64,000 nt of DNA from a virus (Duplodnaviria; Heunggongvirae; Uroviricota; Caudoviricetes), in the IMG/VR virus record IMGVR_UViG_2671180890_000004. One strand, written 5' to 3'. Below are positions 36,750 to 60,143 of the stretch, piece by piece. How positions within the stretch are numbered: the stretch's first letter is position 1; each line of letters begins with the position of its first letter. The notes under the pieces were generated by a model. It saw only the letters and a list, made by a program, of their open reading frames with translations. It had not been told where the DNA came from and did no database searches. A program made the translations under genes and the position numbers.

Positions 36750-36800
36750 TGCCACGGGGCGGGAGCGTCGCGGGAAAAGGCTAGTTTTTGAAATTTCATT
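36750..36800. other. candidate cos site (cosN-like)
   Basis: GGGGCGGGAGCGTCGCGGG resembles lambda cosN GGGCGGCGACCTCGCGGG (recalled); lies just upstream of the terminase small-subunit gene. Confidence 0.4.
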
Positions 36801-36942
36801 CGTCATCACCACTACTGTAATGCATTGATATTACATTGGTTTTATTTTTATGGTGTCGATTTTGATTGTTTTTTGTTCATCACTAACACCGTTTGCCTAA
36901 AGTTGTTCGCAAGATGCATGTTTAAAACATTCTGGAGCGGGT

Positions 36943-37437
36943 ATGGATCGAGAGTTAAAAAATCTGACGCTGAATATCAGTCAACTGGCGGCACTGTCAG
37001 GTGTACATCGCCAGACTGCTGCGGCAAGGCTGCAAAATCTACCCGTTGCAGGGGGGCATGAAAGCAACCTCAAGCTTTATCGGGTGGTTGATATTGTGTC
37101 GGCATTTCTGGCATTACCACCGCCGGTTGCAGAAGGCGAAATGGACGCGCATGAGCGCAAAGCCTGGTATCAGTCTGAACGTGAGCGTCTTAAGTTCGAA
37201 CAGGAAACGGCGCAACTCATTCCGGCCAGTGATGTCAGACGGGAGTTTGCCATCTGGGCAAAAGCGGTCGTGCAGGTGCTGGAGACATTACCGGATATTC
37301 TGGAACGTGACTGCGGTCTGCAGCCTGCCGCTGTGAGCCGTGTTCAGTCCATTATTGATGATCTGCGCGATCAGATAGCCCTGCGGGTGACCGAAGCAGG
37401 TGCGGATGATGAGGAGGAATTACAGCAGGAGGAGTAA
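36943..37437 (+). CDS. terminase small subunit (Nu1-like)
   Basis: N-terminal wHTH (LNISQLAALSGVHRQTAAARL) and position before terminase large subunit. Confidence 0.7.
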   Translation: MDRELKNLTLNISQLAALSGVHRQTAAARLQNLPVAGGHESNLKLYRVVDIVSAFLALPPPVAEGEMDAHERKAWYQSERERLKFEQETAQLIPASDVRREFAIWAKAVVQVLETLPDILERDCGLQPAAVSRVQSIIDDLRDQIALRVTEAGADDEEELQQEE

Positions 37438-39539: not shown

Positions 39540-39748
39540 ACCAGAATGATATCGAAGCCATGATTCAGCGTTATACGGAAGCTGAAATGGCGGTGCTGGA
39601 CGGAAAATCCGTCACCTTTAATGGTCAGCAGATGACCATGGAAAACTTATCTGAGATCCGGCAGGGACGGCAGGAGTGGGAGCGCCGCCTTGCGGCTCTG
39701 ATTACACGACGACGGGGGCATCCCGGGTACCGGCTGGCGAGGTTCTGA
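39530..39748 (+). CDS. head-tail joining protein (gpW-like)
   Basis: Size and position between terminase and portal. Confidence 0.7.
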   Translation: MVMNQNDIEAMIQRYTEAEMAVLDGKSVTFNGQQMTMENLSEIRQGRQEWERRLAALITRRRGHPGYRLARF

Positions 39749-41256
39749 TGGCAATTCTTGATGATGTGATTGGCGTTTTTTCACCAGGATGGAAAGCGGC
39801 AAGGCTGCGTTCCCGTGCGGTGATCCTGGCTTATGAGGCCGTAAAAACGACGCGGACACACAAAGCCCGGCGGGAAAACCGAACTGCCGACCAGTTAAGC
39901 CAGTACGGGGCCGTGTCGTTACGTGAGCAGGCCCGTTACCTTGATAACAACCACGATCTGGTCATTGGTGTATTTGACAAGCTGGAAGAACGGGTGGTGG
40001 GGAAAAACGGGATTATTGTCGAGCCACATCCGGTATTACGCAATGGGGCCATTGCCCGTGACCTGGCTGCGGAGATTCGCACCCGATGGAGTGAATGGTC
40101 TGTCAGCCCGGAAGTCACCGGGCAGTTTACCCGTCCGATGCTGGAACGTCTGATGCTGCGTACCTGGCTGCGCGATGGTGAGGTGTTTGCCCAGATGGTT
40201 TCCGGGCGCATAAACAGCCTGACGCCTTCTGCCGGTGTTCATTTCTGGCTGGAGGCACTTGAGCCGGACTTTATTCCCATGACCAGTGATGAGAGCAACA
40301 GGCTGAATCAGGGCGTGTTTGTTGATGACTGGGGGCGTCCCGAAAAATATCTGGTGTATAAAAGTCGTCCTGTATCCGGACGGCAGATGGAAACCAAAGA
40401 AGTGGATGCAGAGCGAATGCTGCATCTTAAATTTGTTCGCCGTCTGCACCAGATGCGCGGGACGTCTTTATTGTCCGGTGTACTGATCCGCCTCAGTGCC
40501 CTGAAAGAGTATGAAGATTCTGAGCTGACTGCAGCAAGGATCGCCGCTGCTCTGGGGATGTACATCCGCAAAGGCGACGGGCAGAGCTATGAACCGGATG
40601 GTAATGGCAGCAAGGATAAGGAACGCGAGCTTACCATTCAGCCAGGCATTATTTACGACGATCTGAAACCCGGAGAAGAAATCGGAATGGTGAAGTCGGA
40701 TCGTCCCAATCCTAACCTTGAAACTTTTCGTAATGGTCAGTTGCGTGCAGTGGCGGCTGGCAGTCGTCTGAGTTTTTCCAGTACAGCGCGCAACTATAAC
40801 GGCACTTACAGCGCCCAGCGTCAGGAGCTGGTTGAATCCACTGATGGCTACCTGATCCTGCAGGACTGGTTTATTGGTGCCGTCACCCGCCCGATGTACC
40901 GTGCCTGGCTGAAACAGGCTGTGGCATCCGGTGTTATCAGGCTACCCCGCGATCTTGACCGTTCTTCACTGTATACCGCGGTGTATTCCGGACCGGTGAT
41001 GCCGTGGATTGACCCTGTTAAGGAGGCTGAGGCCTGGAAAATCCAGATTCGTGGTGGAGCGGCGACAGAATCAGACTGGGTACGTGCTGGTGGTCGTAAT
41101 CCGGATGATGTCAAACGTCGGCGCAAGGCCGAAATTGATGAAAACCGCAAGCTGGATCTGGTATTTGATACCGATCCGGCCAGTGATAAAGGAGGCAGCA
41201 GTGCCGCAACGAAACGACAGGAGCCGCAGCACATCGACGACCAGTCCGAAGAATAA
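39748..41256 (+). CDS. portal protein (lambda gpB family)
   Basis: ATG overlaps the W stop (TGATG); size and order. Confidence 0.8.
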   Translation: MAILDDVIGVFSPGWKAARLRSRAVILAYEAVKTTRTHKARRENRTADQLSQYGAVSLREQARYLDNNHDLVIGVFDKLEERVVGKNGIIVEPHPVLRNGAIARDLAAEIRTRWSEWSVSPEVTGQFTRPMLERLMLRTWLRDGEVFAQMVSGRINSLTPSAGVHFWLEALEPDFIPMTSDESNRLNQGVFVDDWGRPEKYLVYKSRPVSGRQMETKEVDAERMLHLKFVRRLHQMRGTSLLSGVLIRLSALKEYEDSELTAARIAAALGMYIRKGDGQSYEPDGNGSKDKERELTIQPGIIYDDLKPGEEIGMVKSDRPNPNLETFRNGQLRAVAAGSRLSFSSTARNYNGTYSAQRQELVESTDGYLILQDWFIGAVTRPMYRAWLKQAVASGVIRLPRDLDRSSLYTAVYSGPVMPWIDPVKEAEAWKIQIRGGAATESDWVRAGGRNPDDVKRRRKAEIDENRKLDLVFDTDPASDKGGSSAATKRQEPQHIDDQSEE

Positions 41257-41269
41257 TTCCTGGTTCAGG

Positions 41270-43228
41270 ATGCAGGCTGGTCACCAGAGTGACGCGGATA
41301 TTTATATTTATGACGAGATTGGTTTCTGGGGTGTTACAGCGAAGCAGTTTATCAGTGATCTGAATGCACTGGGCGATATCACCCACATTAATCTCCATAT
41401 CAATTCACCGGGTGGCGATGTCTTTGAAGGCATCGCCATTTTTAATGCACTGAAAACACATGGTGCGTCCATTACCGTTTATGTCGACGGTGTGGCGGCG
41501 TCAATGGCGTCGGTCATTGCGATGGTGGGAAACCCGGTCATTATGCCGGAAAACACCTTCATGATGATTCATAAACCATTTGGCTTTACGGGCGGTGATG
41601 CGGAGGACATGCGCACCTATGCCGACCTGCTCGATAAGGTTGAGGCGGTTCTGTTACCCGCTTATGCACAGAAAACCGGGAAAACCACCGATGAAATTGC
41701 TGCCATGCTGGCGGATGAGACCTGGATGTCCGGTGCCGAATGTCTGGCACAGGGATTTGCTGATCAGGTGACGCCAGCCGTTAAGGCAATGGCATGTATT
41801 CAGTCAAAACGTACAGAGGAATTTAAAAAGATGCCGGAATCCATTCGAAACATGATTACTCCGCCACGCAACAGTGCTCCACGCGTACAGGATGATGAAC
41901 CTGCAGCCTCCCGGACGCCAGTGCAGGCAGCAGCACCCGTGGTGGATGAAAACAGCATCCGTGCGCAGGTACTGGCAGAGCAAAAAGCGCGTGTAAACGG
42001 TATTAATGATCTGTTTGCCATGTTTGGCGGGCGTTATCAGACGCTGCAGGCTCAGTGTCTTGCCGATCCTGAATGTTCGCTGGAGCAGGCCCGCGAAAAG
42101 CTGTTGAACGAGATGGGGCGCGAGTCCACGCCATCCAATAAAAATACCCCGGCTCATATTTATGCCGGTAACGGTAATTTTGTGGGGGACGGGATCCGCC
42201 AGGCGCTGATGGCGCGTGCCGGATTTGAAAAAACCGAACGTGATAATGTCTACAACGGGATGACCCTGCGTGAATATGCCCGTATGTCACTGACTGAACG
42301 GGGTATTGGGGTTTCCAGTTATAACCCGATGCAGATGGTCGGTGCGGCGTTCACACACAGTACGTCTGACTTCGGTAATATTCTGCTGGATGTTGCGAAC
42401 AAAGCCATTCTGCAGGGCTGGGAAGATGCCCCTGAAACCTATGAACAGTGGACGCGGAAAGGTCAGTTGTCTGATTTTAAAATTGCCCATCGTGTGGGTA
42501 TGGGGGGCTTCAGTGCTCTGCGTCAGGTGCGTGAAGGGGCGGAATATAAATACGTCACCACCGGAGATAAACAGGCCACTATTGCACTGGCGACCTATGG
42601 CGAGCTGTTCAGTATCACCCGTCAGGCCATTATCAATGATGATCTGAATATGCTGACCGATGTCCCGATGAAACTGGGCCGTGCGGCGAAATCCACTATT
42701 GCCGATCTGGTTTATGCCATTCTGACGTCTAACCCGAAAATCTCCACAGATAATGTAAGTCTGTTCGATAAAGCGAAACATGCAAACGTACTGGAGAGCG
42801 CTGCAATGGACGTGGCATCGCTGGATAAAGCCCGCCAGTTGATGCGCGTTCAGAAAGAGGGGGAGCGTCATCTGAATATTCGTCCTGCGTTCGTACTGGT
42901 ACCGACGGCGATGGAGTCTGTTGCTAACCAGGTCATTCGCTCCTCAAGTGTCAAGGGGGCTGACATTAACGCCGGTATTATTAACCCGGTGAAAGATTTT
43001 GCGACCGTTATTGCAGAGCCTCGTCTTGATGATAACAGCCAGACCACCTTCTACCTGGCTGCGTCAAAAGGCTCCGATACGATTGAAGTGGCTTATCTCA
43101 ACGGTGTGGATACGCCATATATTGATCAGATGGAGGGCTTCAGTGTGGATGGCGTGACAACGAAAGTGCGTATTGACGCCGGTGTCGCGCCAGTTGATCA
43201 CCGTGGTCTGGTGAAATGTACGGCGTAA
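41270..43228 (+). CDS. prohead protease (S49/ClpP-like) fused to major capsid protein
   Basis: N-terminal ClpP/S49-like region (IYIYDEIGFWGV...INSPGGDVFEG...ASMASVIAM) with a long C-terminal capsid-like domain. Confidence 0.7.
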   Translation: MQAGHQSDADIYIYDEIGFWGVTAKQFISDLNALGDITHINLHINSPGGDVFEGIAIFNALKTHGASITVYVDGVAASMASVIAMVGNPVIMPENTFMMIHKPFGFTGGDAEDMRTYADLLDKVEAVLLPAYAQKTGKTTDEIAAMLADETWMSGAECLAQGFADQVTPAVKAMACIQSKRTEEFKKMPESIRNMITPPRNSAPRVQDDEPAASRTPVQAAAPVVDENSIRAQVLAEQKARVNGINDLFAMFGGRYQTLQAQCLADPECSLEQAREKLLNEMGRESTPSNKNTPAHIYAGNGNFVGDGIRQALMARAGFEKTERDNVYNGMTLREYARMSLTERGIGVSSYNPMQMVGAAFTHSTSDFGNILLDVANKAILQGWEDAPETYEQWTRKGQLSDFKIAHRVGMGGFSALRQVREGAEYKYVTTGDKQATIALATYGELFSITRQAIINDDLNMLTDVPMKLGRAAKSTIADLVYAILTSNPKISTDNVSLFDKAKHANVLESAAMDVASLDKARQLMRVQKEGERHLNIRPAFVLVPTAMESVANQVIRSSSVKGADINAGIINPVKDFATVIAEPRLDDNSQTTFYLAASKGSDTIEVAYLNGVDTPYIDQMEGFSVDGVTTKVRIDAGVAPVDHRGLVKCTA

Positions 43229-43251
43229 ACGTCGCAGACAACAACTCTGAT

Positions 43252-43271
43252 GGCCCGTAAGGGCTTTTTTT
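43252..43271 (+). terminator. weak terminator-like hairpin plus T7 after the capsid gene
   Basis: Short stem GCCC / GGGC followed by T7. Confidence 0.35.
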
Positions 43272-43314
43272 GTACCTGAAATCAGCCCCTGAACGGGGCT
43301 GTGCGGAGACAGTT

Positions 43315-43638
43315 ATGGCAAAGAATTTTGTAGAAGAAGGAAAAACGGTGGCGATTGTTGCCAGTGCAGCCATCAGCAGCGGAGATCTGGTGCAGGTGGG
43401 TGATGTTTTTGCGGTGGCGCTGACCGATATTCCACAGGGTGAAACAGGCGACGGCATGACCGAAGGTGTGTTTATGCTGCCTAAGCTGAAAACGGATGAT
43501 ATGAAAACGGGTAAGAAGGTTTATCTGAAGTCCGGAAAAGTTCAGCTGACTAACAGCGGCTCTGATCCGCTGGTCGGGGTTGTCTGGGCAGATGCCGGAA
43601 CCAGTGCAGAAGAAGTGCCGGTAAAACTCAATGTCTGA
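43315..43638 (+). CDS. head decoration / DUF2190-like protein
   Basis: Start at MAKNF with GGAGA RBS; position after the capsid gene. Confidence 0.45.
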   Translation: MAKNFVEEGKTVAIVASAAISSGDLVQVGDVFAVALTDIPQGETGDGMTEGVFMLPKLKTDDMKTGKKVYLKSGKVQLTNSGSDPLVGVVWADAGTSAEEVPVKLNV

Positions 43639-43906
43639 TCCCTTTTCCCGGCTGGCAGCGCGTATGGATGCGATCACGGTCAGAAAGATGGGAAAGACAG
43701 CCTCGATTAATGATGTCGATATGACTGTGATCCCGGGAGAAACACTGGCAGAGCTGAATGCTCTGTCCGGACCTGCGGTCTCTCTGGTGGTGTTTTCTTC
43801 GGGATACCGCCCACGGCGCGGGGATCGCGTTGTTTATGACGGACAACAATGGACGGTCACACGGCATGAACGCTTTAACGGTAAGCCAATGATCTTTATT
43901 GAGTAA
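43631..43906 (+). CDS. head completion/head-tail connector protein
   Basis: Size and position. Confidence 0.45.
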   Translation: MSDPFSRLAARMDAITVRKMGKTASINDVDMTVIPGETLAELNALSGPAVSLVVFSSGYRPRRGDRVVYDGQQWTVTRHERFNGKPMIFIE

Positions 43907-43917
43907 AGAGGTGTGGG

Positions 43918-44496
43918 ATGAAGGGGCTTGAGAATGCCATCCGCAATCTGAACAGCCTTGATACCCGTATGGTGCCACAGGCCAGCGCATGGGCGATAAA
44001 CCGTGTGGCACAGAAAGCGGTCTCGGTTGCCACCCGGCAGGTTGCCGGGAATACCGTTGCGGGAGATAACCAGGTGAAAGGGATCCCCCTGAAACTGGTA
44101 CGTCAGCGTGTCCGGGTGTTTAAAGCCAGTCCGTCAGGAAAAATGACGGCCAGGATCCGCGTTAACCGGGGCAATCTGCCCGCCATTAAGCTGGGGACAG
44201 CCCGGGTCAGACTGGCCCGGCGTGGTGGAAAACTGCAGTACCGTGGCAGCGTGCTGAAGGTGGGTAAATATCTTTTCCGGGATGCGTTTATTCAGCAACT
44301 GGCGAATGGTCGCTGGCATGTGATGCGACGTATTGATGGCAAAAATCGTTACCCCATTGATGTGGTGAAAATCCCGCTGTCCGGGCCGCTGACACAGGCA
44401 TTTGAAGATGCCCGCGACCACATCATTGCTGCGGAAATGCCGAAACAGCTGGGGTATGCACTGAAACAACAACTGAGGTTATGGCTGACCCGATGA
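43918..44496 (+). CDS. minor tail protein Z-like
   Basis: Size, position and gene order relative to U and V. Confidence 0.6.
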   Translation: MKGLENAIRNLNSLDTRMVPQASAWAINRVAQKAVSVATRQVAGNTVAGDNQVKGIPLKLVRQRVRVFKASPSGKMTARIRVNRGNLPAIKLGTARVRLARRGGKLQYRGSVLKVGKYLFRDAFIQQLANGRWHVMRRIDGKNRYPIDVVKIPLSGPLTQAFEDARDHIIAAEMPKQLGYALKQQLRLWLTR

Positions 44497-44894
44497 ACCG
44501 ACATACACAAATCCGCCAGGCCGTACTGGCACGCCTTCGGGAACAGTGTGGAGACAGCGCCACATTTTTTGACGGGCTTCCGGCATTTATTGATGCGCAG
44601 GAACTGCCTGCCGTGGCGGTGTGGCTGAGTGATGCTCAGTACACCGGAAAAATGACGGATGAAGATGACTGGCAGGCTGTTCTGCATATTGCCGTCTTCA
44701 TCCGGGCACAGGCACCGGATTCAGAGCTGGATATGTGGATGGAGAGCACCATTTTCCCTGCCCTGAATGATATACCGGCACTTTCCGGACTCATCGACAC
44801 CCTGATCCCACTCGGTTTTAACTATCAACGTGATAATGAGATGGCCACCTGGGCGATGGCGGAAATCACGTACCAGATCACGTACACGAATTAA
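44481..44894 (+). CDS. minor tail protein U-like
   Basis: Size and position immediately upstream of the major tail protein. Confidence 0.6.
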   Translation: MADPMNRHTQIRQAVLARLREQCGDSATFFDGLPAFIDAQELPAVAVWLSDAQYTGKMTDEDDWQAVLHIAVFIRAQAPDSELDMWMESTIFPALNDIPALSGLIDTLIPLGFNYQRDNEMATWAMAEITYQITYTN

Positions 44895-44904
44895 GGAGGT
44901 GGTA

Positions 44905-45648
44905 ATGACCACACCAAATCCACTGGCAAAGACGAAAGGTGCGGGGACGACGTTCTGGATGTATACCGGCAACGGCGATGCGTTTGCGAACCCTTTGTCG
45001 GACACTGACTGGCTGCGTCTTGCGATGGTGAAGGATCTGCAACCTGGCGAAATGACCGCTGATGCAGAAGATGACACTTATCTCGATGATGAAGATGCAG
45101 ACTGGAAAACGACAACCCAGGGGCAGAAATCCGTTGGTGATACTTCGGCGACGCTGGCCTGGCGTCCGGGTGACAGCGGGCAGAAAAAACTGGTTCAGTT
45201 GTTCGACTCCGGTGAAGTCTGCGCGTTTCGTATCAAATATCCCAACGGCACTGTTGATGTTTTCCGTGGCTGGCTGAGCTCACTGGGTAAAACCATTGCC
45301 TCAAAAGACGTGATGACCCGCACAGTGAAAATCAGCGGTGTTGGGCGTCCGTATCTGGCAGAGGAAGGCACTGAAACAGTGAGCGTTACCGGGCTGACGG
45401 TGGCACCGGCATCTGCCAGTGTAAAAGTGGGAGCAACCACCACGCTGACCTTTACAGTAAAACCTGACGGAGCCAGTGACAAAGCGATCAGCGTGCATTC
45501 GACAGATCCACAGACTGCCACGGTGACCCTGAACGGGCTTGTGGCCACGGTGAAAGGCGTGAAGCAGGGCAGTGTCAGCATTGTGGGCATGACTTCTGAC
45601 GGCGATTTTGTGGCAGTGGCTACGGTGGCTGTCAGCGCCGCAGGTTAA
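44905..45648 (+). CDS. major tail protein V-like with C-terminal Ig-like domain
   Basis: AGGAGG RBS; C-terminal Ig-like (Big_2) segment VSVTGLTVAPASASVKVGATTTLTFTVKPDGASD. Confidence 0.75.
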   Translation: MTTPNPLAKTKGAGTTFWMYTGNGDAFANPLSDTDWLRLAMVKDLQPGEMTADAEDDTYLDDEDADWKTTTQGQKSVGDTSATLAWRPGDSGQKKLVQLFDSGEVCAFRIKYPNGTVDVFRGWLSSLGKTIASKDVMTRTVKISGVGRPYLAEEGTETVSVTGLTVAPASASVKVGATTTLTFTVKPDGASDKAISVHSTDPQTATVTLNGLVATVKGVKQGSVSIVGMTSDGDFVAVATVAVSAAG

Positions 45649-45705
45649 CAGGACGATACTCATCATTTGCCCCGGTTATCAGGGGCTTTTTTGCAGGTGG
45701 AGAAC

Positions 45706-46095
45706 ATGATGTTTCTGAAACAGGGCACGTTTAATTATGAAAAGCAGTCCGTGGTGCTCAGTGAGCTGTCCGGGCTGCAGAGAATTGAATATCTGGCGTT
45801 TGTTCAGCAGCGAACGGCAAAGTTTGATGCCGAAGAGGGAGAACTGCCGGAGGCTGAACGACAGATTGCTTTTCTGCGGATGGGGATGGATATCAATGCC
45901 TGGCTGGTTTCCCGCTCACTGTGGAATGCGGAACAGTCTCAGGATGTTGAGACGCTTTGCGCATCCGTTATTACAACATGGTCGTATGATGCCCTGGGAG
46001 CGGGGGCGGAGATGGTTCTGTCGCTGAGCGGTATGGGAGCCATTGAGAATGCCGGGGATTTGGAGCATGAGGTGCTGACGCCGGAAAAGTCCTGA
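45706..46095 (+). CDS. tail assembly chaperone G
   Basis: Position before the tape measure; followed by an ORF in the -1 frame. Confidence 0.7.
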   Translation: MMFLKQGTFNYEKQSVVLSELSGLQRIEYLAFVQQRTAKFDAEEGELPEAERQIAFLRMGMDINAWLVSRSLWNAEQSQDVETLCASVITTWSYDALGAGAEMVLSLSGMGAIENAGDLEHEVLTPEKS

Positions 46096-46103
46096 CGCGG
46101 GAA

Positions 46104-46433
46104 ATGCAGTTTGTCATGCGGCTTGCCCGGGAGTTCCGGCGGGCAGACTGGCGGCGGATGCTGTCGGAAATGTCGGCCACTGAGCTTGGTGAGTGGGGCG
46201 ATTATTTCCGGATGCAGAGCTTCAGTGATGTGTGGATGGATGCGCAGTTTGCCTCGCTGAAGGCATTGATCGTGAGAATGGTGTCCGGCAGCAGTGATGC
46301 TGCGGTGGCTGATTTCAGCCTTTTACCGGAAGAGAACGGGATACCGGAGCGAACGGACGAAGAACTGATGCATCTTGGGGAAGGTATTTCCGGAGGTGTG
46401 CGTTATGGACCAGATAGCCAACCTGGTCATTGA
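46104..46433 (+). CDS. tail assembly chaperone T segment (expected to be made as a G-T fusion by -1 frameshift)
   Basis: Frame is -1 relative to G and open from 46080; candidate slip site GGAAAAG at 46083-46089. Confidence 0.6.
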   Translation: MQFVMRLAREFRRADWRRMLSEMSATELGEWGDYFRMQSFSDVWMDAQFASLKALIVRMVSGSSDAAVADFSLLPEENGIPERTDEELMHLGEGISGGVRYGPDSQPGH

Positions 46434-49400
46434 TTTGGGGATTGATGCGGCAGAGTTTAAAAATGAAATTCCCCGTATCAAAAACCTTCTGAATGGTGCA
46501 GCCAGCGATGCAGAACGGTCTTCTGCCCGTATGCAGCGTTTTATGGAGCGTCAGACTCAGGCCGCCCGGCAGACAATGCAGGCGGCGTCTTCGGCTGCAA
46601 CAGCCGCATCCGTCCATGCGCAGACGGTGGAGAAGAGCGCACAGGCTCATGAACGCATGGCCCGCGAGGTGGAGCAAACCCGCCAGCGTATGGAGGCACT
46701 GAGCCAGAAAATGCGCGAGGAACAGGCGCAGGCCATGGCTCTGGCGGAGGCTCAGGATAAAGCGGCTGCCGCGTTTTATCGTCAGATTGACAGTGTGAAA
46801 CAGGCCAGTGCGGGGTTGCAGGAATTACAGCGTATTCAGCAGCAGATCCGACAGGCCAGAAACAGTGGCGGGATTGGTCAGCAGGATTATCTGGCGCTGA
46901 TTTCTGAGGTTACGGCGAAAACCCGTGTTCTTACGCAGGCTGAGGCAGAGGCTACCCGACAGAAAGTGGCGTTTATCCGTCAGCTTAAAGAGCAGGCAAC
47001 CCGCCAGAATCTTTCTTCTTCTGAGTTGCTTCGTGCCAGGGCTGCCCAGCTGGGGGTAAGCAGTGCTGCAGAAGTGTATATCCGCAAAATGGAGCGGGCA
47101 GGAAAAGCCACGCATTCGCTGGGTCTGAAAAGTGCAGCGGCCCGCCAGGAGATAGGCGTTCTGATAGGTGAACTGGCCCGCGGCAATTTAGGGGCGCTGA
47201 GGGGATCCGGGATAACGCTGGCTAACCGTGCCGGATGGATAGACACACTGATGTCACCGAAAGGCATGATGCTGGGCGGGGTTATTGGCGGTATTACCGC
47301 GGCCGTCTATGGTCTGGGTAAAGCCTGGTATGACGGTCAGAAGGAGGGGGAAGAATTTAACCGCCAGCTGTCGCTGACGGGGCATTATGCCGGAGTCACT
47401 GCCGGGCAGCTGTGGACGCTCAGTCGTGCTATTTCCGGGAATGGTATCACGCAACATGCTGCAGCCGGTGCGCTGGCTCAGGTGGTGGGGAGTGGTGCAT
47501 TTCGTGGAAACGATATCGGTATGGTGGCGAGAGCTGCCGCACAGATGGAGCGATCGGTTGGCCAGTCGATCAGCGATACCATAAATCAGTTTAAGCGGCT
47601 GAAGGATGATCCTGTAAATGCCGCGAAGGCTCTGGACAATGAGCTGCATTTTCTTACTGCCACTCAGCTTGAGCAGATACGCATCCTTGGAGAGCAGGGG
47701 CGGTCCAGTGATGCGGCACGGATAGCCATGTCTGCACTGGCAGAGGAAACCGGTCGGCGTACTGCGGATATTGATAATAACCTCAATGCGCTGGGTAGTA
47801 CGCTGCAAACCTTGTCTGACTGGTGGAAGCAGTTCTGGGATGCGGCCATGAATATTGGTCGTGAAGATTCGCTGGATGCGCAGATTGCCACTTTGCAGGA
47901 GAAAGTATCGCGGGCGAAAAGACTCCCCTGGACGGCATCATCTTCTCAGGTTGAATACGATCAGCAGCGTCTTAACGAGCTTCAGGAGAAAAAACGCCAG
48001 AAGGATTTGCAGGATGCAAAAGAGCAGGCAGAGCGGAATTATCAGGAGCAACAGAAACGCCGTAATGCTGAAAATGCTGCACTGAACCGGATGAATGAAA
48101 CGGAAGCAGCACGACATCAGCGTGAAATTGCGCGTATTAATGCCATGCAGTACGCCGATCAGGCTGTCAGGGATGCGGCGATACAACGTGAAAATGAACG
48201 TTACGAGAAAGCCCTGGCATCCGGTAAGAAAAAAACACGCGAAACCCGTAATGATGAGGCCACCCGGTTATTGCTGCAGTACAGCCAGCAACAGGCACAG
48301 GTGGAAGGACAGATTGCTGCTGCCAGACAGTCAGCAGGCATTGCCACTGACAGGATGACAGAAGCGCATAAACAGCTTCTGGCTCTGCAGCAGCGCATCA
48401 GCGACCTGGACGGGAAAAAACTGACGGCAGATGAAAAGAGTGTGCTGGCCCGTAAAGATGAACTGATTCAGGCACTGACGCTGCTGGATGTAAAACAGCA
48501 GGAGCTTCAGAAACAGACGGCACTCAACGATCTGAAGAAAAAAACAATTCAGCTGACCAGTCAACTGGCTGAAGAAGAGCGCGCTCAGCGTCAGCAACAT
48601 GACCTGGATATCGCCACGGTGGGTATGGGTGATCAGCAGCGGCAGCGATATCAGGTACAACTGAGCCTTCGCCAGAAATACCAGCAACAGCTGGAGCAGT
48701 TGAGGCGGGATAGTGAGCAGAAAGGGACATATAACACGGATGACTACAGAAAGGCCGAGCAGGCGCTGACGGAGAGCCTGAACAGGCAACTGAATGAGAA
48801 TCGCCGTTACTGGCAACAGCTTGAAATTGCTCAGGGTAACTGGAAAAACGGTGCCATGCGGGCGTTTCAGAATTTCACGGCAGATGCGGATAATGCGGCA
48901 GGAACAGCAGAACAGGTGTTCTCGTCAGCTTTCAGCAACATGGGAAATGGCCTGGCAACTTTTGTCACTACCGGCAAACTCAACTTCAAATCCTTCACCT
49001 CTTCGGTGCTGTCAGATATGGCGAAAATCCTGGCGCAGGCAACCATGATGAAATCGATAAAAGGGATTGGCAGTGTACTGGGATTTGATCTCAGCAGCCT
49101 TTCCCTGAATGCCAATGGGGGATTTATCAGTCTGCTGATTTGAGTCGTTACAGTGGCACGGTGGTTAACCGTCCGACGTTTTTTGCTTTTGCAAAAGGCG
49201 CGGGTGTGATGGGGGAAGCTGGACCTGAAGCCATTCTGCCACTGCGTCGTGGTGCTGACGGTAAGCTGGGGGTTGTGGCGGATATTGGTGGTTCAGGTAT
49301 GGCGATGTTTGCCCCGCAGTACAACATCGAGATCAATAACGATGGCACGAACGGGCAGATAGGTCCGGCTGCCCTGAAGGTGGTTTATGACCTCGGGAAA

Positions 49401-49469
49401 AAAGCGGCAGCGGACTTTATGCAACAGCAGGCCCGTGATGGTGGTCGGTTAAGTGGAGCATATCGGTAA
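46405..49469 (+). pseudogene. tape measure protein H, split by an apparent 1-nt frameshift near 49117-49140
   Basis: N-part 46405..49143 and C-part 49140..49469 (lambda H-like ...NNDGTNGQIGPAALK... C-terminus) are in different frames. Confidence 0.7.
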
Positions 49470-49798
49470 TGGAGACGTTTCACTGGAAAGTGCGCCCGGA
49501 TATGAATGTGGTATCAGAGCCGAAAGTGGTGACAGTGAAGCTGGGCGATGGTTATGAACAGCGTCGTGCGGCGGGACTGAATAACCAGTTGTCGACTTAC
49601 AGCGTGACGATACGTGTTCGTAAATGTGAACACCCATCTTTAAAAGCCTTTCTGGAACGGCACGGTGGCGTCCGCGCATTTCAGTGGACGCCACCTTATG
49701 ACTGGAAGCCGATCAGGGTGGTTTGTCGTAAATGGTCGGCAAGCGTGGGGGCGCTGTGGGTAACCATAACGGCAGATTTTGAACAGGTCGTGGCATAG
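49469..49798 (+). CDS. minor tail protein M
   Basis: Similarity to lambda M (GDGYEQR...GGVRAFQWTPPY). Confidence 0.8.
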   Translation: METFHWKVRPDMNVVSEPKVVTVKLGDGYEQRRAAGLNNQLSTYSVTIRVRKCEHPSLKAFLERHGGVRAFQWTPPYDWKPIRVVCRKWSASVGALWVTITADFEQVVA

Positions 49799-49804
49799 GA
49801 GGCC

Positions 49805-50506
49805 ATGATGCAGGATATTCCACAGGAAACACATCATGAGACGACACGCCTCACTCAGTCAGCCCAGGTGGTGCTCTGGGAAATCGATCTGACAGAGGTC
49901 GGTGGTGAACGTTATTTTTTCTGTAATGAGCAGAACGAAAAAGGTGAGCCGGTCACCTGGCAGGGGCGGCAGTATCAGGCATACCCCATTCAGGGGACAG
50001 GATTTGAACTGAACGGCAAGGGCAGTGCTGCCCGTCCGACACTGACGGTTTCTAACCTGCACGGTATGGTCACCGGTATGGCGGAAGATCTGCAGAGTCT
50101 GGTCGGCGGAACGGTGGTCCGGCGTAAGGTTTACGCCCGTTTTCTGGATGCGGTGAACTTCGTCAACGGAAACAGTGATGCCGACCCGGAGCAGGAGGTG
50201 ATCAGCCGCTGGCGCATCGAGCAGTGCAGTGAACTGAGTGCGGTCAGTGCTTCTTTTGTACTGTCCACGCCGACGGAAACGGACGGTGCTGTTTTTCCGG
50301 GGCGTATCATGCTGGCCAACACCTGCACCTGGACCTATCGCGGTGATGAGTGCGGTTATAACGGTCCGGCTGTCGCGGATGAATATGACCAGCCGACGTC
50401 CGATATCACGAAGGATAAATGCAGCAAATGCCTGAGCGGCTGTAAGTTTCGCAATAACGTCGGCAACTTTGGCGGTTACCTTTCCATTAACAAACTTTCG
50501 CAGTAA
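49805..50506 (+). CDS. minor tail protein L
   Basis: Lambda L-like; C-terminal Cys cluster (CSKCLSGCKF). Confidence 0.8.
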   Translation: MMQDIPQETHHETTRLTQSAQVVLWEIDLTEVGGERYFFCNEQNEKGEPVTWQGRQYQAYPIQGTGFELNGKGSAARPTLTVSNLHGMVTGMAEDLQSLVGGTVVRRKVYARFLDAVNFVNGNSDADPEQEVISRWRIEQCSELSAVSASFVLSTPTETDGAVFPGRIMLANTCTWTYRGDECGYNGPAVADEYDQPTSDITKDKCSKCLSGCKFRNNVGNFGGYLSINKLSQ

Positions 50507-50511
50507 ATCCC

Positions 50512-51255
50512 ATGACAGAGACAGAATCAGCGATTCTGGCGCACGCCCGGCGATGTGCGCCAGCGGAGTCGTGCGGCTTCGTGGTGAGAATGCCGGAGGG
50601 AGAAAGATATTTTCCCTGCGTGAATATCTCCGGTGAGCCGGAGGCGTATTTCCGGATGGCTCCGGAGGACTGGCTGCGGGCAGAAATGCAGGGTGAGATT
50701 GTGGCGCTGGTCCACAGTCACCCCGGTGGTCTGCCCTGGCTGAGTGAGGCCGATCGGCGGCTGCAGGTGCAGAGTGATTTGCCGTGGTGGCTGGTCTGCC
50801 GCGGGGCGATTCACAAGTTCCGCTGTGTGCCACATCTTACCGGGCGGCGCTTTGAGCACGGGGTGACGGACTGTTACACGCTGTTCCGGGATGCATACCA
50901 TCTGGCGGGAATTGAGATGCCGGATTTTCATCGCGGAGATGACTGGTGGCGTAACGGCCAGAATCTCTATCTTGACAATATGGAGGCGACTGGTTTTTAC
51001 CGTGTCGCACTGACAGAGGCGCAGCCGGGCGATGTGCTGCTGTGCTGTTTTGGTTCATCGGTGCCGAATCATGCCGCCATTTACTGTGGTGATGGCGAGC
51101 TGCTGCACCATATTCCTGAACAACTGAGCAAACGAGAGAGGTATACCGACAAATGGCAGCGACGCACACACTCCCTCTGGCGTCACCGGGCATGGCGCGC
51201 ATCTGCCTTTACGGGGATTTGCAACGATTTGGCCGCCGCATCGACCTTCGTGTGA
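50512..51255 (+). CDS. tail assembly protein K (MPN/JAB plus NlpC/P60)
   Basis: JAMM-like HSHP motif (VALVHSHPGG) and lambda order. Confidence 0.75.
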   Translation: MTETESAILAHARRCAPAESCGFVVRMPEGERYFPCVNISGEPEAYFRMAPEDWLRAEMQGEIVALVHSHPGGLPWLSEADRRLQVQSDLPWWLVCRGAIHKFRCVPHLTGRRFEHGVTDCYTLFRDAYHLAGIEMPDFHRGDDWWRNGQNLYLDNMEATGFYRVALTEAQPGDVLLCCFGSSVPNHAAIYCGDGELLHHIPEQLSKRERYTDKWQRRTHSLWRHRAWRASAFTGICNDLAAASTFV

Positions 51256-51800
51256 AAACGGGGGCTGAAGCCATCCGGGCGCTGGCCACACAGCTTCCGT
51301 CGTTTCGCCAGAAACTGAATGAGGGCTGGTATCAGGTGCGCATTGCCGGGCGTGATGCAGGCGAAAATGAATTATCTGCCCGTCTTAATGAGCCGCTGGA
51401 AAATGGTGCCGTGATTCACATCGTGCCGCGTATGGCGGGAGCTAAAAGTGGCGGTGTGTTTCAGGTGGTGCTGGGGGCGGCGCTGATTGCGGTGGCATGG
51501 TGGAACCCTGTGGGCTGGCTGGGTGCTGCGGCTGTATCGGGCATGTATGCGGCAGGGGCCAGTATGATCCTGGGTGGTGTGGCCCAGATGCTGGCACCGA
51601 AAGCCAGGACGCCCACGGCAGCCAGTACAGATAACGGCAAACAGAACACCTATTTCTCCTCACTGGATAACATGGTTGCTCAGGGCAATGTTCTGCCTGT
51701 TCTGTACGGTGAAATGCGTGTGGGGTCGCGGGTGGTTTCTCAGGAGATCAGCACGGCAGACGAAGGTGACGGTGGTCAGGTTGTGGTGATTGGTCGCTGA
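51153..51800 (+). CDS. tail assembly protein I
   Basis: Lambda I-like C-terminus (NGKQNTYFSSLDNMVAQGNVLPVLYGEMRVGSRVVSQEIS); the 5' end overlaps K, so the true start is probably internal. Confidence 0.7.
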   Translation: MAATHTLPLASPGMARICLYGDLQRFGRRIDLRVKTGAEAIRALATQLPSFRQKLNEGWYQVRIAGRDAGENELSARLNEPLENGAVIHIVPRMAGAKSGGVFQVVLGAALIAVAWWNPVGWLGAAAVSGMYAAGASMILGGVAQMLAPKARTPTAASTDNGKQNTYFSSLDNMVAQGNVLPVLYGEMRVGSRVVSQEISTADEGDGGQVVVIGR

Positions 51801-51821
51801 TGCAAAATGTTTTATGTGAAA

Positions 51822-51842
51822 CCGCCTGCGGGCGGTTTTGTC
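51822..51842 (+). terminator. terminator-like hairpin after I
   Basis: Stem ACCGCC / GGCGGT followed by TTTTG. Confidence 0.35.
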
Positions 51843-51860
51843 GTTTATGGAGCATGACGA

Positions 51861-54800
51861 ATGGGTAAAGGCAGCAGTAAGGGGCATACCCCGCGCGAAG
51901 CGAAGGACAACCTGAAGTCCACGCAGTTGCTGAGTGTGATCGATGCCATCAGCGAAGGGCCGGTTGAAGGTCCGGTGGATGGGTTAAAAAGCGTGCTGCT
52001 GAACAGTACGCCGGTGCTGGACAGTGAGGGGAATACCAATATCTCCGGTGTCACGGTGGTGTTCCGGGCAGGTGAGCAGGAGCAGACTCCGCCGGAGGGG
52101 TTTGAATCCTCCGGTTCCGAGACGGTGCTGGGTACGGAAGTGAAATACGACACGCCGATCACCCGGACCATTACGTCGGCAAACATCGACCGACTGCGCT
52201 TTACCTTCGGTGTGCAGGCACTGGTGGAAACCACTTCAAAGGGTGACCGGAATCCGTCGGAAGTCCGCCTGCTGGTTCAGATACAACGTAACGGTGGCTG
52301 GGTGACGGAAAAAGACATCACCATTAAAGGCAAAACCACCTCGCAGTATCTGGCCTCGGTGGTGGTGGATAACCTGCCGCCGCGCCCGTTTAATATCCGG
52401 ATGCGCAGGATGACGCCGGACAGCACCACAGACCAGCTGCAGAACAAAACGCTCTGGTCGTCATACACCGAAATCATCGATGTGAAACAGTGCTACCCGA
52501 ATACGGCACTGGTCGGCGTACAGGTGGATTCGGAGCAGTTCGGCAGCCAGCAGGTGAGCCGTAATTATCATCTTCGCGGGCGCATTCTGCAGGTGCCGTC
52601 GAACTATAACCCGCAGACGCGGCAATACAGCGGTATCTGGGACGGAACGTTTAAGCCAGCATACAGCAACAACATGGCCTGGTGTCTGTGGGATATGCTG
52701 ACCCATCCGCGCTACGGCATGGGGAAACGTCTTGGTGCGGCGGATGTGGACAAATGGGCGCTGTATGTCATCGGCCAGCATTGCGATCAGTCGGTGCCGG
52801 ACGGTTTTGGCGGCACGGAGCCGCGCATCACCTGTAATGCGTACCTGACCACACAGCGCAAGGCGTGGGATGTGCTCAGTGATTTCTGCTCTGCGATGCG
52901 CTGTATGCCGGTATGGAACGGGCAGACGCTGACGTTCGTGCAGGACCGACCGTCGGATAAGGTGTGGACCTATAACCGCAGTAATGTGGTGATGCCGGAT
53001 GATGGTGCGCCGTTCCGCTACAGCTTCAGCGCCCTGAAGGACCGCCATAATGCCGTTGAGGTGAACTGGATTGACCCGAATAACGGCTGGGAGACGGCGA
53101 CAGAGCTTGTGGAGGACACGCAGGCCATTGCCCGTTACGGTCGTAACGTCACGAAGATGGATGCTTTTGGCTGTACCAGCCGGGGGCAGGCACACCGCGC
53201 CGGGCTGTGGCTGATTAAAACAGAACTGCTGGAAACGCAGACCGTGGACTTCAGCGTGGGTGCCGAAGGGCTTCGCCATGTACCGGGCGATGTCATTGAA
53301 ATCTGCGATGATGACTATGCCGGTATCCGCACCGGCGGGCGCGTGCTGGCGGTAAACAGCCAGACCCGGACGCTGACGCTCGACCGTGAAATCACGCTGC
53401 CATCTTCCGGCACCACGCTGATAAGCCTGGTTGACGGGCAGGGGAGTCCGGTCAGCGTGGAGGTTCAGTCCGTCACCGACGGCGTGAAGGTGAAAGTGAG
53501 CCGTGTTCCTGACGGCGTTGCTGAATACAGCGTATGGGGGCTGAAGCTGCCGACGTTGCGCCAGCGCCTGTTCCGCTGCGTGAGTATCCGTGAGAACGAC
53601 GACGGCACGTATGCCATCACCGCCGTGCAGCATGTACCGGAAAAAGAGGCCATCGTGGATAACGGGGCGCACTTTGACGGCGACCAGAGCGGCACGGTAA
53701 ATGGTGTCACGCCGCCAGCGGTGCAGCACCTGACCGCAGAAGTCACCGCAGACAGCGGGGAATACCAGGTGCTGGCGCGCTGGGACACGCCGAAGGTGGT
53801 GAAGGGCGTGAGCTTCCTGCTTCGCCTGACCGTGGCAGCGGATGACGGCCGTGAGCGGCTGGTCAGCACGGCCCGGACGACGGAAACCACTTACCGCTTC
53901 ACACAACTGGCTCTGGGGAACTACAGGCTGACAGTCCGGGCAGTAAATGCGTGGGGCAGCAGGGCGATCCGGCGTCGGTATCGTTCCGGATTGCCGCACC
54001 GGCAGCGCCGTCGCGGATTGAGCTGACGCCGGGCTATTTTCAGATAACCGCCACGCCGCATCTTGCGGTTTATGACCCGACGGTACAGTTTGAGTTCTGG
54101 TTCTCGGAAAAACGGATTGCGGATATCAGGCAGGTTGAAACCAGCGCGCGTTATCTTGGTACGGCACTGTACTGGATAGCCGCCAGTATCAATATCAAAC
54201 CGGGCCATGATTATTATTTTTACGTTCGCAGTGTGAACACCGTTGGCAAATCGGCATTCGTGGAGGCTGTCGGTCAGCCGAGTGATGATGCATCAGGCTA
54301 TCTGGATTTTTTCAAAGGCGAGATAGGGAAAACCCATCTGGCTCAGGAGCTGTGGACGCAGATTGATAACGGTCAGCTTGCGCCTGACCTGACTGAAATC
54401 AGGACGTCCATAACGGATGTCAGCAATGAAATAACACAGACCGTCAATAAGAAACTGGAAGACCAGAGTGCAGCGATCCAGCAGATACAGAAGGTTCAGG
54501 TTGATACAAATAATAACCTGAACAGCATGTGGGCAGTGAAGCTGCAGCAGATGCAGGACGGACGCCTTTATATTGCGGGTATCGGTGCCGGTATTGAGAA
54601 CACCCCTGACGGCATGCAGAGTCAGGTGCTGCTGGCAGCAGACAGGATTGCGATGATTAATCCTGCGAATGGCAACACAAAGCCGATGTTTGTTGGTCAG
54701 GGCGATCAGATATTCATGAATGAAGTGTTCCTGAAACGCCTGACGGCCCCCACCATTACCAGCGGCGGTAATCCTCCGGCATTTTCCCTGACATCAGACG

Positions 54801-55357
54801 GGAGACTGACGGCGAAAAATGCGGATATCAGTGGCAGTGTGAATGCGAACTCAGGAACGCTCAACAATGTCACGATTAACCAGAACTGTACGATTAAGGG
54901 CATGCTGGAGGCGACCCAGGTCAGAGGAGATTTCGTTAAAGCTGTATCAAAAGCCTTCCCGAAAAAAGTCGGTACGTGGGGTAACACGGAAACACCAAAC
55001 GGTACGGTTACAGTCACCATCAGCGATGATCATAACTTTGACCGCCAGATTATTATTCCGCCCATTATTTTTAACGGTATAGCGTATGACGCTCCGGGGA
55101 GCGGAAATAACCCGGGAGGCACGCGATACACGGGTTATGGTTTTGAAGTTCGCAAAAACGGCGTATTAATCGCATCCAGAGAAACTAAAGGGGCCATTCC
55201 CGGTAGTTACAGTGCAGTTATTGATATGCCTAGTGGTGGTGGTAGCGTCACTCTGGAGTTTAAGATTTTCCAGAAAGGCAATCAGGGGGCAGGCAATATC
55301 ACCGACTGTACGGTGATTGTGACCAAAAAAGCGGCTTCCGGCATCAGTATTCGTTGA
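51861..55357 (+). pseudogene. host-specificity (central tail fibre) protein J, split by a 1-nt deletion at ~53953-53956
   Basis: N-part 51861..54026 ends ...AVNAWG then goes out of frame; C-part 53951..55357 continues the lambda J sequence ([28 protein letters not shown]...) in the -1 frame. Confidence 0.8.
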
Positions 55358-55380
55358 AATATTTATAACCCCAATAAATG

Positions 55381-55406
55381 GCGTCAGGAATGACGCCTTT
55401 TTTATT
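55381..55406 (+). terminator. rho-independent terminator after J
   Basis: Stem GGCGTC / GACGCC followed by a T-run. Confidence 0.45.
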
Positions 55407-55427
55407 GCAGAAAAGCGAGAGGTAATT

Positions 55428-56027
55428 ATGCGTAAAGTTTGTGCCGCCATTTTGTCCGCAGCCATTTGTCTGGCCGTATCCGGTGCGCCTGCATGGGCGT
55501 CTGAACATCAGTCCACGCTGAGCGCGGGGTATCTTCATGCCCGGACCAACGTTCCCGGCAGTGATGATCTGAACGGGATTAACGTGAAATACCGTTATGA
55601 GTTTACGGATACGCTGGGGCTGGTGACGTCATTCAGCTATGCAGGAGACAAGAATCGCCAGCTGACCCATTACAGCGATACTCGCTGGCATGAAGATTCC
55701 GTTCGTAACCGCTGGTTCAGCGTAATGGCGGGGCCGTCTGTGCGCGTGAATGAATGGTTCAGCGCGTATGCGATGGCGGGTGTGGCTTACAGCCGTGTGT
55801 CGACTTTCTCCGGGGATTATCTCCGCGTAACTGACAACAAGGGGAAAACGCACGATGTGCTGATCGGAAGTGATGACGGTCGCCACAGCAACACGTCTCT
55901 GGCGTGGGGGGCTGGCGTGCAGTTTAACCCGACCGAATCCGTGGCCGTTGATGTCGCTTATGAAGGTTCCGGCAGTGGCGACTGGCGCACTGACGGTTTC
56001 ATCGTGGGTGTCGGTTATAAATTCTGA
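55428..56027 (+). CDS. lom: outer-membrane protein Lom (Ail/Lom/PagC family)
   Basis: Signal peptide and beta-barrel-like alternating pattern ending in a C-terminal aromatic (GYKF). Confidence 0.85.
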   Translation: MRKVCAAILSAAICLAVSGAPAWASEHQSTLSAGYLHARTNVPGSDDLNGINVKYRYEFTDTLGLVTSFSYAGDKNRQLTHYSDTRWHEDSVRNRWFSVMAGPSVRVNEWFSAYAMAGVAYSRVSTFSGDYLRVTDNKGKTHDVLIGSDDGRHSNTSLAWGAGVQFNPTESVAVDVAYEGSGSGDWRTDGFIVGVGYKF

Positions 56028-56052
56028 TTAGCCAGGTAACACAGTGTTATGA

Positions 56053-56080
56053 CAGCCCGCCGGTTCAGGCGGGCTTTTTT
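56053..56080 (+). terminator. rho-independent terminator after lom
   Basis: Stem GCCCGCC / GGCGGGC followed by T6. Confidence 0.6.
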
Positions 56081-56091
56081 GTGGGGTGAAT

Positions 56092-59000
56092 ATGGCAGTA
56101 AAGATTTCAGGTGTACTGAAAGACGGCACAGGAAAACCGGTACAGAACTGCACAATCCAGCTGAAAGCAAAACGTAACAGCACCACGGTGGTGGTGAACA
56201 CGCTGGCCTCAGAAAATCCGGATGAAGCCGGGCGTTACAGCATGGACGTTGAGTACGGTCAGTACAGCGTTATTCTGTTGGTGGAAGGATTCCCGCCGTC
56301 ACATGCCGGGACCATCACCGTGTATGAAGATTCCCGACCCGGTACGCTGAATGATTTTCTCGGTGCCATGACGGAGGATGATGCCCGTCCGGAGGCTCTG
56401 CGCCGTTTTGAACTGATGGTGGAAGAGGTGACGCGTAACGCGTCCGCGGTGGCACAGAACACGGCAGCCGCGAAGAAGTCAGCCAGTGATGCCGGCACAT
56501 CTGCCCGTGAGGCGGCAACCCATGCGACTGATGCTGCAGGCTCAGCGCGTGCAGCCAGCACGTCAGCCGGACAGGCCGCGACTTCGGCTCAGGAGGCGTC
56601 TTCCAGCGCAGGAACGGCATCAACAAAGGCCACTGAAGCATCAAAAAGTGCTGCCGCTGCAGAGTCCTCAAAAAGCGCGGCGGCCACCAGTGCCGGTGCG
56701 GCGAAAACGTCAGAAACGAATGCTGCAGCGTCACAAAAATCAGCAGCCACTTCTGCATCCACTGCGACGACGAAAGCGTCAGAAGCCGCCACTTCAGCCA
56801 GAGATGCGGCGGCCTCCAAAGAGGCGGCAAAATCATCAGAAACGAACGCCTCCACAAGCGCCAGCAGTGCAGCCTCCTCGGCAACGGCGGCAGGAAATTC
56901 CGTGAAGGCGGCAAAAACGTCCGAGACGAATGCCAGGTCTTCTGAAACGGCAGCGGAACAGAGCGCCTCAGCTGCGGCAGACTCTGAGACAGCAGCTGCA
57001 TCATCGGCCCGTGAGGCGTCCATTAAGGCAGAGGAGGCAGCAGTCAGTGCCACCGCCGCCGGAAAATCGGCAGAAAGTGCCGCATCGTCTGCTTCAACAG
57101 CCACAACGAAGGCTGGCGAAGCCACTGAACAGGCCAGCGCAGCAGCGAGGTCTGCTTCCGCAGCGAAGACATCCGAGACGAACGCGAAAGCGTCGGAAAC
57201 CAGCGCAGAATCCTCAAAAACGGCTGCCGCATCGTCCGCCAGTTCGGCGGCGTCATCGGCATCATCGGCGTCTGCTTCAAAAGATGAGGCGACCAGACAA
57301 GCGTCCGCAGCGAAGGGCAGCGCCACGACAGCATCCACGAAGGCGACAGAGGCAGCTGGCAGTGCGACGGCGGCAGCACAGAGCAAAAGTACGGCGGAAT
57401 CCGCGGCAACGCGCGCCGAGACAGCGGCAAAACGGGCAGAGGATATTGCATCCGCCGTGGCGCTTGAGGATGCAAGTACGACGAAAAAGGGGATAGTACA
57501 GCTCAGCAGTGCGACCAACAGTACGTCTGAAACGCTGGCGGCAACGCCAAAGGCAGTAAAATCAGCCTATGACAATGCAGAGAAACGTCTGCAGAAAGAC
57601 CAGAACGGCGCTGATATACCCGATAAGGGACGCTTCCTGAACAACATTAACGCGGTCAGTAAAACAGACTTTGCTGATAAGCGTGGTATGCGTTATGTGC
57701 GGGTTAACGCTCCTGCAGGTGCAACATCTGGAAAATATTACCCTGTTGTTGTTATGCGTTCTGCTGGCTCAGTAAGCGAACTGGCATCAAGGGTCATTAT
57801 CACCACGGCAACGCGAACCGCAGGCGATCCGATGAATAACTGCGAGTTTAACGGGTTTGTTATGCCTGGTGGCTGGACTGACAGGGGGCGTTATGCTTAT
57901 GGAATGTTCTGGCAATATCAAAACAATGAACGAGCCATCCACTCAATAATGATGAGTAATAAGGGCGATGATTTGCGCTCTGTGTTCTATGTTGATGGCG
58001 CTGCTTTCCCTGTTTTTGCGTTTATCGAAGATGGCCTGTCAATATCCGCACCTGGTGCTGATCTCGTTGTTAATGATACGACCTATAAGTTTGGGGCAAC
58101 AAATCCAGCGACTGAATGTATCGCGGCGGACGTTATCCTTGATTTTAAGAGTGGGCGTGGTTTTTATGAGTCTCATTCGTTAATCGTTAACGATAACTTG
58201 TCGTGCAAAAAACTTTTTGCCACAGACGAAATTGTAGCGCGTGGTGGTAATCAGATTCGAATGATAGGTGGGGAGTATGGTGCATTATGGCGTAATGATG
58301 GCGCTAAAACTTACCTGCTGCTTACCAATCAAGGTGATGTTTATGGTGGCTGGAATACATTAAGACCGTTTGCTATTGATAACGCAACCGGCGAACTGGT
58401 TATTGGAACCAAACTGTCCGCAAGTCTGAACGGTAATGCATTAACAGCAACAAAGCTGCAAACGCCAAGACTGGTTTCTGGGGTTGAGTTTGATGGTTCC
58501 AGAGATATTACTTTAACCGCTGCGCATGTTGCTGCTTTTGCCAGAAGAGCAACGGATACGTATGCCGATGCGGATGGGGGCGTTCCCTGGAATGCCGAAT
58601 CAGGCGCTTACAATGTCACTCGCTCTGGCGACAGCTATATTCTGGTTAACTTCTATACCGGAGTCGGAAGTTGCCGGACATTGCAGATGAAGGCGCATTA
58701 CAGAAATGGAGGTCTGTTCTACCGTTCCTCAAGAGATGGCTATGGTTTTGAGGAAGGCTGGGCAGAAGTTTATACCTCGAAAAATCTTCCACCAGAAAGC
58801 TACCCAGTCGGCGCACCAATCCCGTGGCCATCAGATACCGTTCCGTCTGGTTATGCCCTGATGCAGGGGCAGACTTTTGACAAATCTGCTTACCCGAAAC
58901 TTGCAGCCGCTTATCCGTCAGGCGTGATCCCTGATATGCGTGGCTGGACGATTAAGGGCAAACCTGCCAGTGGTCGGGCCGTATTGTCTCAGGAACAGGA

Positions 59001-59490
59001 CGGTATTAAATCGCACACCCACAGCGCCAGCGCATCCAGTACGGATTTGGGGACGAAAACCACATCGTCGTTTGATTACGGCACTAAATCCACGAATAAC
59101 ACTGGTGCGCATACCCATAGTTTAAGTGGCAGCACGAATGCAGCTGGTAATCACAGCCATAGAGATGGCCGTCGATTTAACCCCAGTGTTTTTAAAGATA
59201 CTTATCAATATGGTTATACAAGCTCAGGTCAAAATACCTGGGGTGTACAAGGCTCAGTAGGTATGTCTACGGGGTGGTTAGCGAATACCAGTACAGATGG
59301 TAATCATAGCCATTCACTGTCCGGCACAGCAGCATCTGCAGGTGCACACGCGCATACTGTCGGTATTGGTGCTCATACGCACTCCGTTGCGATTGGTTCA
59401 CATGGACACACCATCACCGTTAACGCTGCTGGTAACGCGGAAAACACCGTCAAAAACATCGCATTTAACTATATTGTGAGGCTTGCATAA
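56092..59490 (+). CDS. stf: side tail fibre protein (Stf-like) with Ala/Ser-rich repeats
   Basis: Long Ala/Ser/Thr repeat region and His-rich GxHxH repeats near the C-terminus. Confidence 0.8.
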
Positions 59491-60074: not shown

Positions 60075-60076
60075 GC

Positions 60077-60124
60077 AAAAAAGAAAAACCGCAGACACGA
60101 CGTATGCATGACGTGCTGCGGTTT
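60077..60124. terminator. long hairpin between tfa and the GIY-YIG gene
   Basis: Stem AAACCGCAG...CTGCGGTTT with an A-run on the plus side (U-tract on the minus strand). Confidence 0.4.
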
Positions 60125-60143
60125 ATGCTTATCACTTAAAGAC

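Follow-up and report, generated by a model that had tools for sequence, protein, structure and literature searches.

Single-base G-run shortfalls split the tail genes H and J in the record of a lambda-like Escherichia coli prophage: a probable homopolymer-length error

Gene content of the window and its relatives

The DNA analysed here, referred to as the window, is a single stretch of 64,000 nucleotides (nt). Its first segment (1-11543) is a Mu-like prophage with genes for a transposase, an ExeA/MuB-like protein, Gam and Mor, and is 99.98% identical to a prophage of FDAARGOS_1299 (two substitutions, no gap), where the element lies in sfaA. At approximately 11543/11544, the end of the Mu-like segment meets the inside of gabP, of which a 127-codon N-terminal stub is left (open reading frame [ORF] 11527-11910, minus strand). 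As the Mu-like end is inside the gene, the GABA permease appears to be insertionally disrupted. The segment that follows (11540-17895) carries the host genes gabP', gabT, gabD, lhgO and glaH/csiD, and shows one substitution and no gap in comparison to ST131 strain EC958 (HG941718.1). In EC958, no prophage genes separate this host segment from smpB, its immediate neighbour. Based on this match and on the smpB adjacency, the host is ST131-like and the lambda-like prophage of the window starts at approximately 17.9 kb.

The lambda-like prophage has the tail gene order U, V, G, T, H, M, L, K, I, J and is 97-99.6% identical to prophages of E. coli AR_0081 and AST81 and to phage mEp460. Past the tail-fibre assembly gene, the right end of the prophage (60144-64000) carries cargo: a GIY-YIG (LEM-3-like) gene on the minus strand, a DNA cytosine methyltransferase gene (61282-62757) and, also on the minus strand, an EcoRII-family restriction endonuclease gene that runs off the end of the window. 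This cargo is a restriction-modification module located next to ssrA.

The split reading frames of H and J

The gene located between the G/T tail-assembly chaperone genes and the M-L-K-I-J tail-tip genes is the tape-measure gene H, as it is colinear with its counterparts in AR_0081, AST81 and mEp460. In the window, H is divided between two frames of the plus strand. The N-terminal part (46405-49143; 912 codons, frame 0) begins at the ATG annotated as the H start in both AR_0081 and mEp460 (the listed ORF begins farther upstream, at TTG 46375) and ends '...SLNANGGFISLLI*' at a premature TGA codon (49141-49143). The remainder (49119-49469) lies in the -1 frame, which reads '...GIYQSADLSRYSGTVVNRPTFFAFAKGAGVMGEAGPEAILPLRRGADGKLGV...' around the break and stays open to 49469; within it, a 109-amino acid (aa) ORF is listed from TTG 49140 (49140-49469). 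The sequence of this frame, '...GIYQSADLSRYSGTVVNRPTFFAFAKGAGVMGEAGPEAILPLRRGADGKLGVVADIGG...GGRLSGAYR*', is the conserved tape-measure C-terminus. Upstream of the TGA, a run of five Gs (G5) occupies 49117-49121 (plus strand); the letters from 49110 to 49143 are tgccaatGGGGGatttatcagtctgctgatTTGA.

Both AR_0081 (WP_106023075.1) and mEp460 (AFM76050.1) encode the tape-measure protein in a 3,066-nt gene with the same gene order and 97-99.6% nucleotide identity, and H of AST81 is likewise a single ORF of this length. In these relatives the run has six Gs (G6) and H is one ORF of 1,021 aa, whereas the window has five Gs and two ORFs. Across the break, 141 nt of the window align with AR_0081 and mEp460 at 100% identity save for one gap, G5 against G6. 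Because the only gap falls inside the G run, the missing base belongs to the run and not merely to its vicinity, and adding one G to the run restores a single 1,021-aa ORF. The H lesion is thus one G short within the run. A sequence-only reading of this DNA had described the H stop, the continuation of the C-terminal sequence in the -1 frame from 49140 and the G5 run, and all three are borne out by the letters, the ORF list and the translations. It had also proposed a 1-nt deletion near the run, to be placed by alignment to intact lambda-like H genes: the size holds, and the alignment moves the site from near the run to within it.

The repaired H protein, as found in the sister assembly described below, has precomputed matches to PF06791 (TMP_2), PF24622 and PF09718 (Tape_meas_lam_C). 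PF06791 and PF09718 are also matched by a 912-aa homologue in the Logan contig of run SRR29354241. Lambda gpH (AAA96548.1, 853 aa) is homologous over most of its length (25% identity, E = 8e-49), although the H of the window is 168 aa longer, has a much diverged coiled-coil middle and, as recorded, is cut before the C-terminal segment. The last ~45 residues of intact H are nearly identical to the lambda gpH end: by BLASTP, H residues 977-1021 align with gpH 809-853, and in the window this segment is found only in the -1 frame, along with a helix homologous to gpH 818-849. Residues 818-842 of lambda gpH form a three-helix coiled coil that, within the lumen of the tail tip, rests on the gpI plug (PMC10721106). 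As the lost segment holds this gpI-seated helix, a real truncation would be disabling.

J, the tail-tip gene (51861-55357, plus strand), is broken in the same way. Its N-terminal part (51861-54026) is shortened to 721 codons by a second G-run shortfall, and its C-terminal part (53951-55357) continues in the -1 frame, so that J appears as ORFs of 721 and 468 aa. The run at 53953-53956 (plus strand) has four Gs (G4) where every relative examined has five, bearing out the J frameshift that had been proposed from the letters. The G4 allele was found in none of 4,286 matching E. coli genomes.

H and J are the only broken genes of the prophage. Between 36.7 and 57.6 kb, alignment with AR_0081 contains two gaps, the H run and the J run; two other 1-nt differences, seen against AST81 at 33470 and 34897, are intergenic. 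No gaps occur in 17864-26424 or 27625-33900 in comparison to QA-1986 83. Comparison of 17.9-64 kb with relatives revealed no frame-breaking indels besides those in H and J, and the prophage shows no decay beyond these two G runs. The window contains nine G/C runs of 6, 39 G/C runs of 5 and 22 A/T runs of 7-8; where a comparator exists, all of these agree in length except those in H and J. Since these runs agree, and since 1-11543 and 11540-17895 are free of gaps against near-identical genomes, a generally error-prone assembly is not evident.

H carries one further difference from its relatives. A 112-nt mosaic patch (48784-48895), lacking in mEp460 and AR_0081, differs from all other H genes examined by 17 substitutions, which produce nine conservative amino acid changes and are otherwise synonymous. 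Among complete E. coli genomes, matches to a 377-nt query across the patch did not exceed 95.8%. It has the look of a short stretch acquired by recombination from a tape-measure lineage that is as yet unsampled. Relaxed selection following the frameshift was considered as its source and rejected: the changes are conservative and partly synonymous, and an intact sister allele has them too, which makes this an ordinary mosaic patch.

An independent assembly and the alleles of the H run

The assembly that carries this intact allele is GCA_014081925.1. Three of its contigs match the window: contig 12 (DABNDR010000012.1; window 36405-50590, 14,187 nt) has no mismatches and one gap, G6 against G5 at 49117; contig 27 (window 50631-55392) has no mismatches and one gap, G5 against G4 at 53953; and contig 20 (window 55438-64000) is 100% identical, with neither mismatches nor gaps. 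Over 27.5 kb there are therefore zero substitutions and two indels, both of them G-run contractions in the window. Because the rare H patch is common to both, the assembly represents the same prophage lineage as the window and not a generic relative.

Exact look-ups gave matching results at the protein level. Repaired H (1,021 aa) is identical to HAL2037190.1 and repaired J (1,165 aa) to HAL2037718.1, both from GCA_014081925.1 and both tagged 'TPA' (NCBI third-party annotation). The truncated products, H of 912 aa (from the ATG) or 922 aa (from the TTG) and J of 721 aa, had no exact match in a collection of 15 billion proteins.

The sister contigs break at window positions 50591-50630 and 55393-55437, isolating K'-I-J as a 4.76-kb contig, which suggests that the sequences at these boundaries have further copies in that genome, such as in a second lambdoid prophage. 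As the window is unbroken through both positions, we infer that its own assembly was based on long reads. Look-ups of truncated gabP, gabT, a 271-aa ORF and a 313-aa ORF, made to see whether contig 12 shares the Mu-in-gabP junction, never returned DABNDR010000012.1, although that of gabT revealed the match of the host segment to EC958.

The two breaks in the window probably reflect homopolymer-length errors in the assembly. Both are length changes of a single base within a homopolymer, and an independent, otherwise identical assembly has the frame-restoring length at both runs. The main alternative, which we consider unlikely, is genuine slippage: a single G lost from the H G6 tract and a second from J, making H a pseudogene and the prophage tail-defective. 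In its favour, the G shortfall is truly present in the letters, G homopolymers are established hot spots of slippage, and the remainder of the window bears no sign of sloppy assembly; GCA_014081925.1 might also be a truly differing clone-mate rather than the same isolate. Against it, the 27.5 kb contain two frameshifts but no substitutions. In a repair-proficient strain, it would be very improbable for slippage to delete a base twice independently within 5 kb during a time too short for a single substitution to arise across the 27.5 kb.

The distribution of the H allele bears on both readings. Alleles were counted with a 124-nt query across the run, for which a 100% match denotes G5 and a 99.2% match denotes G6. 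Among near-identical complete E. coli genomes, approximately 1,283 of 1,286 have G6. The three with G5 (a share of ~0.2%) are 08-00022, O145 RM8995-C1 and O145 RM10425-C1. All 120 metagenome contigs returned have G6, as do the three matches in a scan of one genome per species (GTDB representatives) and phage mEp460, and the G5 allele matched no contigs in IMG/VR. One further G5 allele is found in the Logan (de Bruijn-graph) contig of run SRR29354241, which has another H haplotype and no further indel in 4.8 kb.

In the two G5 records inspected, 08-00022 (CP48_RS10810) and RM8995-C1 (DXE49_RS27045), the same G6-to-G5 change at the same run produces a 3,065-nt coding sequence that PGAP labels 'frameshifted'. 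Both differ from the window in H haplotype and in host lineage. The G5-bearing H genes are separated from one another by 26-77 substitutions; the change therefore arose, or was mis-called, several times independently. A literature search for how the other G5 genomes had been sequenced yielded only strain tables, and these name no platform for the strains concerned.

These recurrent alleles can be taken as support for genuine slippage, as they occur in four other assemblies on differing haplotypes and include the Logan contig with no other indel; if SRR29354241 is a short-read run, real G6-to-G5 mutations occur. Their pattern within clones points the other way. RM8995-C1 (G5) differs from its intact clone-mates RM8843-C1 and RM8988-C1 (both G6) by no mismatches in 11.9 kb and by one gap, at the H run, and RM10425-C1 has G5 where RM9872 has G6. 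Among those examined, G5 alleles are never shared within a clone: each is a single-genome event. A neutral prophage mutation is expected to pass to whole clones. Inheritance of the kind that decay predicts was seen neither in the sister assembly, which is intact, nor elsewhere, where G5 is confined to single genomes.

The 109-aa C-terminal ORF is present in three contigs, of which only the SRR29354241 contig has G5. The other two have G6: one has an internal H deletion, and the second, CP028772.1, has numerous indels, about 40 small ones across 6.9 kb of its tail genes. 08-00022 also carries a neighbouring 'frameshifted' prohead protease/capsid gene. The homologous prophage evidently contains many frameshifts in both the 08-00022 and the CP028772.1 record, which are examples of assembly-error pseudogenes in this gene cluster.

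The split could also be functional, either through a programmed -1 ribosomal frameshift that rescues H or through a phase-variable G tract that switches tail production. Full-length H would result from a -1 shift at any point of 49089-49140, the neighbouring G/T chaperone genes of phage lambda are a known site of programmed -1 frameshifting, and changes in H tract length recur in independent lineages. However, no X XXY YYZ slippery heptamer is present in this 52-nt rescue zone, and the two-ORF layout is not conserved: H is a single ORF in more than 99.7% of relatives (approximately 1,283 of 1,286 genomes and 120 of 120 contigs). Programmed frameshifting was rejected on these grounds. A phase-variable contingency locus was likewise rejected, as a 6-nt tract is generally too short for high-frequency phase variation and the off allele is never clonal and rare, accounting for ~0.2% of complete genomes and occurring in none of 120 metagenome contigs and in no viral contigs. 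We regard a functional split of either kind as extremely improbable.

Interpretation of the lesions and consequences for the prophage

We favour homopolymer error because the base-identical sister is intact at both genes, two indels are set against zero substitutions, the truncated products are absent from the protein collection and G5 alleles occur in single genomes only; the first three of these observations, the failure of clone-mates to share G5 and the lack of other decay in the prophage all weigh against slippage. The sequence-only reading had offered a choice between a decaying, non-inducible prophage and homopolymer sequencing errors. Of these, error is supported by the sister alleles (G6 and G5), by the differences between clone-mates and by the lack of any other broken gene, while decay is not, as only two G runs are affected.

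Under the error reading, H of this mEp460/lambda-like prophage would be biologically intact, in an ST131-like E. coli host and at a site beside ssrA-proximal sequence. The G6 run of H would have been under-called as G5 and the G5 run of J as G4; each under-call would introduce a -1 break, and in H one ORF of 1,021 aa would then appear as ORFs of 912 and 109 aa. It is the record, and not the organism, that would differ.

Errors of this type have been described in other bacterial assemblies. In the Polypolish report (PMC8812927), residual errors in long-read bacterial assemblies are described as mostly homopolymer-length errors that survive short-read polishing in repeats. The lesions in the window resemble these in being single-base homopolymer errors in multi-copy prophage genes that are corrected in an independent assembly, although their assignment to this class is one that we infer. 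Many database pseudogenes are assembly artefacts according to a second report (PMC11017572).

If the lesions are instead real, the 912-aa H would lack its last 109 aa, by which the tape measure is anchored in the tail tip; the segment lost includes the match to gpH 809-853, so the truncation would be disabling. Together with truncated J, such an H should block tail assembly while induction and lysis are unaffected, yielding tail-less, non-infectious heads. Induction, excision, replication and lysis do not depend on tail genes, whose loss would cost only the infectious particles. For this reason, the description of the prophage as non-inducible would not follow even from real lesions in H and J. 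With such lesions, the prophage would simply be one more tail-defective lysogen of a familiar kind. There is nothing new in either the error or the slippage reading, and the finding is ordinary either way.

A broader version of the slippage reading is that the G6 tract of H, and perhaps the G5 tract of J, is a genuine hot spot of mutation, where lambdoid prophages of E. coli forfeit tail production again and again in separate events. This would mean that the at least five independent occurrences of G5 (the window, 08-00022, RM8995-C1, RM10425-C1 and SRR29354241) are real and very recent. We consider both the hot spot and the reality of these occurrences quite improbable. If true, the tract would let prophage domestication begin quickly, or would act as a low-frequency switch that turns virion infectivity on and off.

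With homopolymer error as the preferred reading, the window is chiefly a caution. From the record alone, H and J would be called pseudogenes and the prophage 'defective', although an independent assembly of the same DNA has intact coding sequences for both. Several complete genomes in public databases show the H G6 tract as G5 and have the gene annotated as 'frameshifted'; such calls should be verified in the reads before intact prophages are counted.
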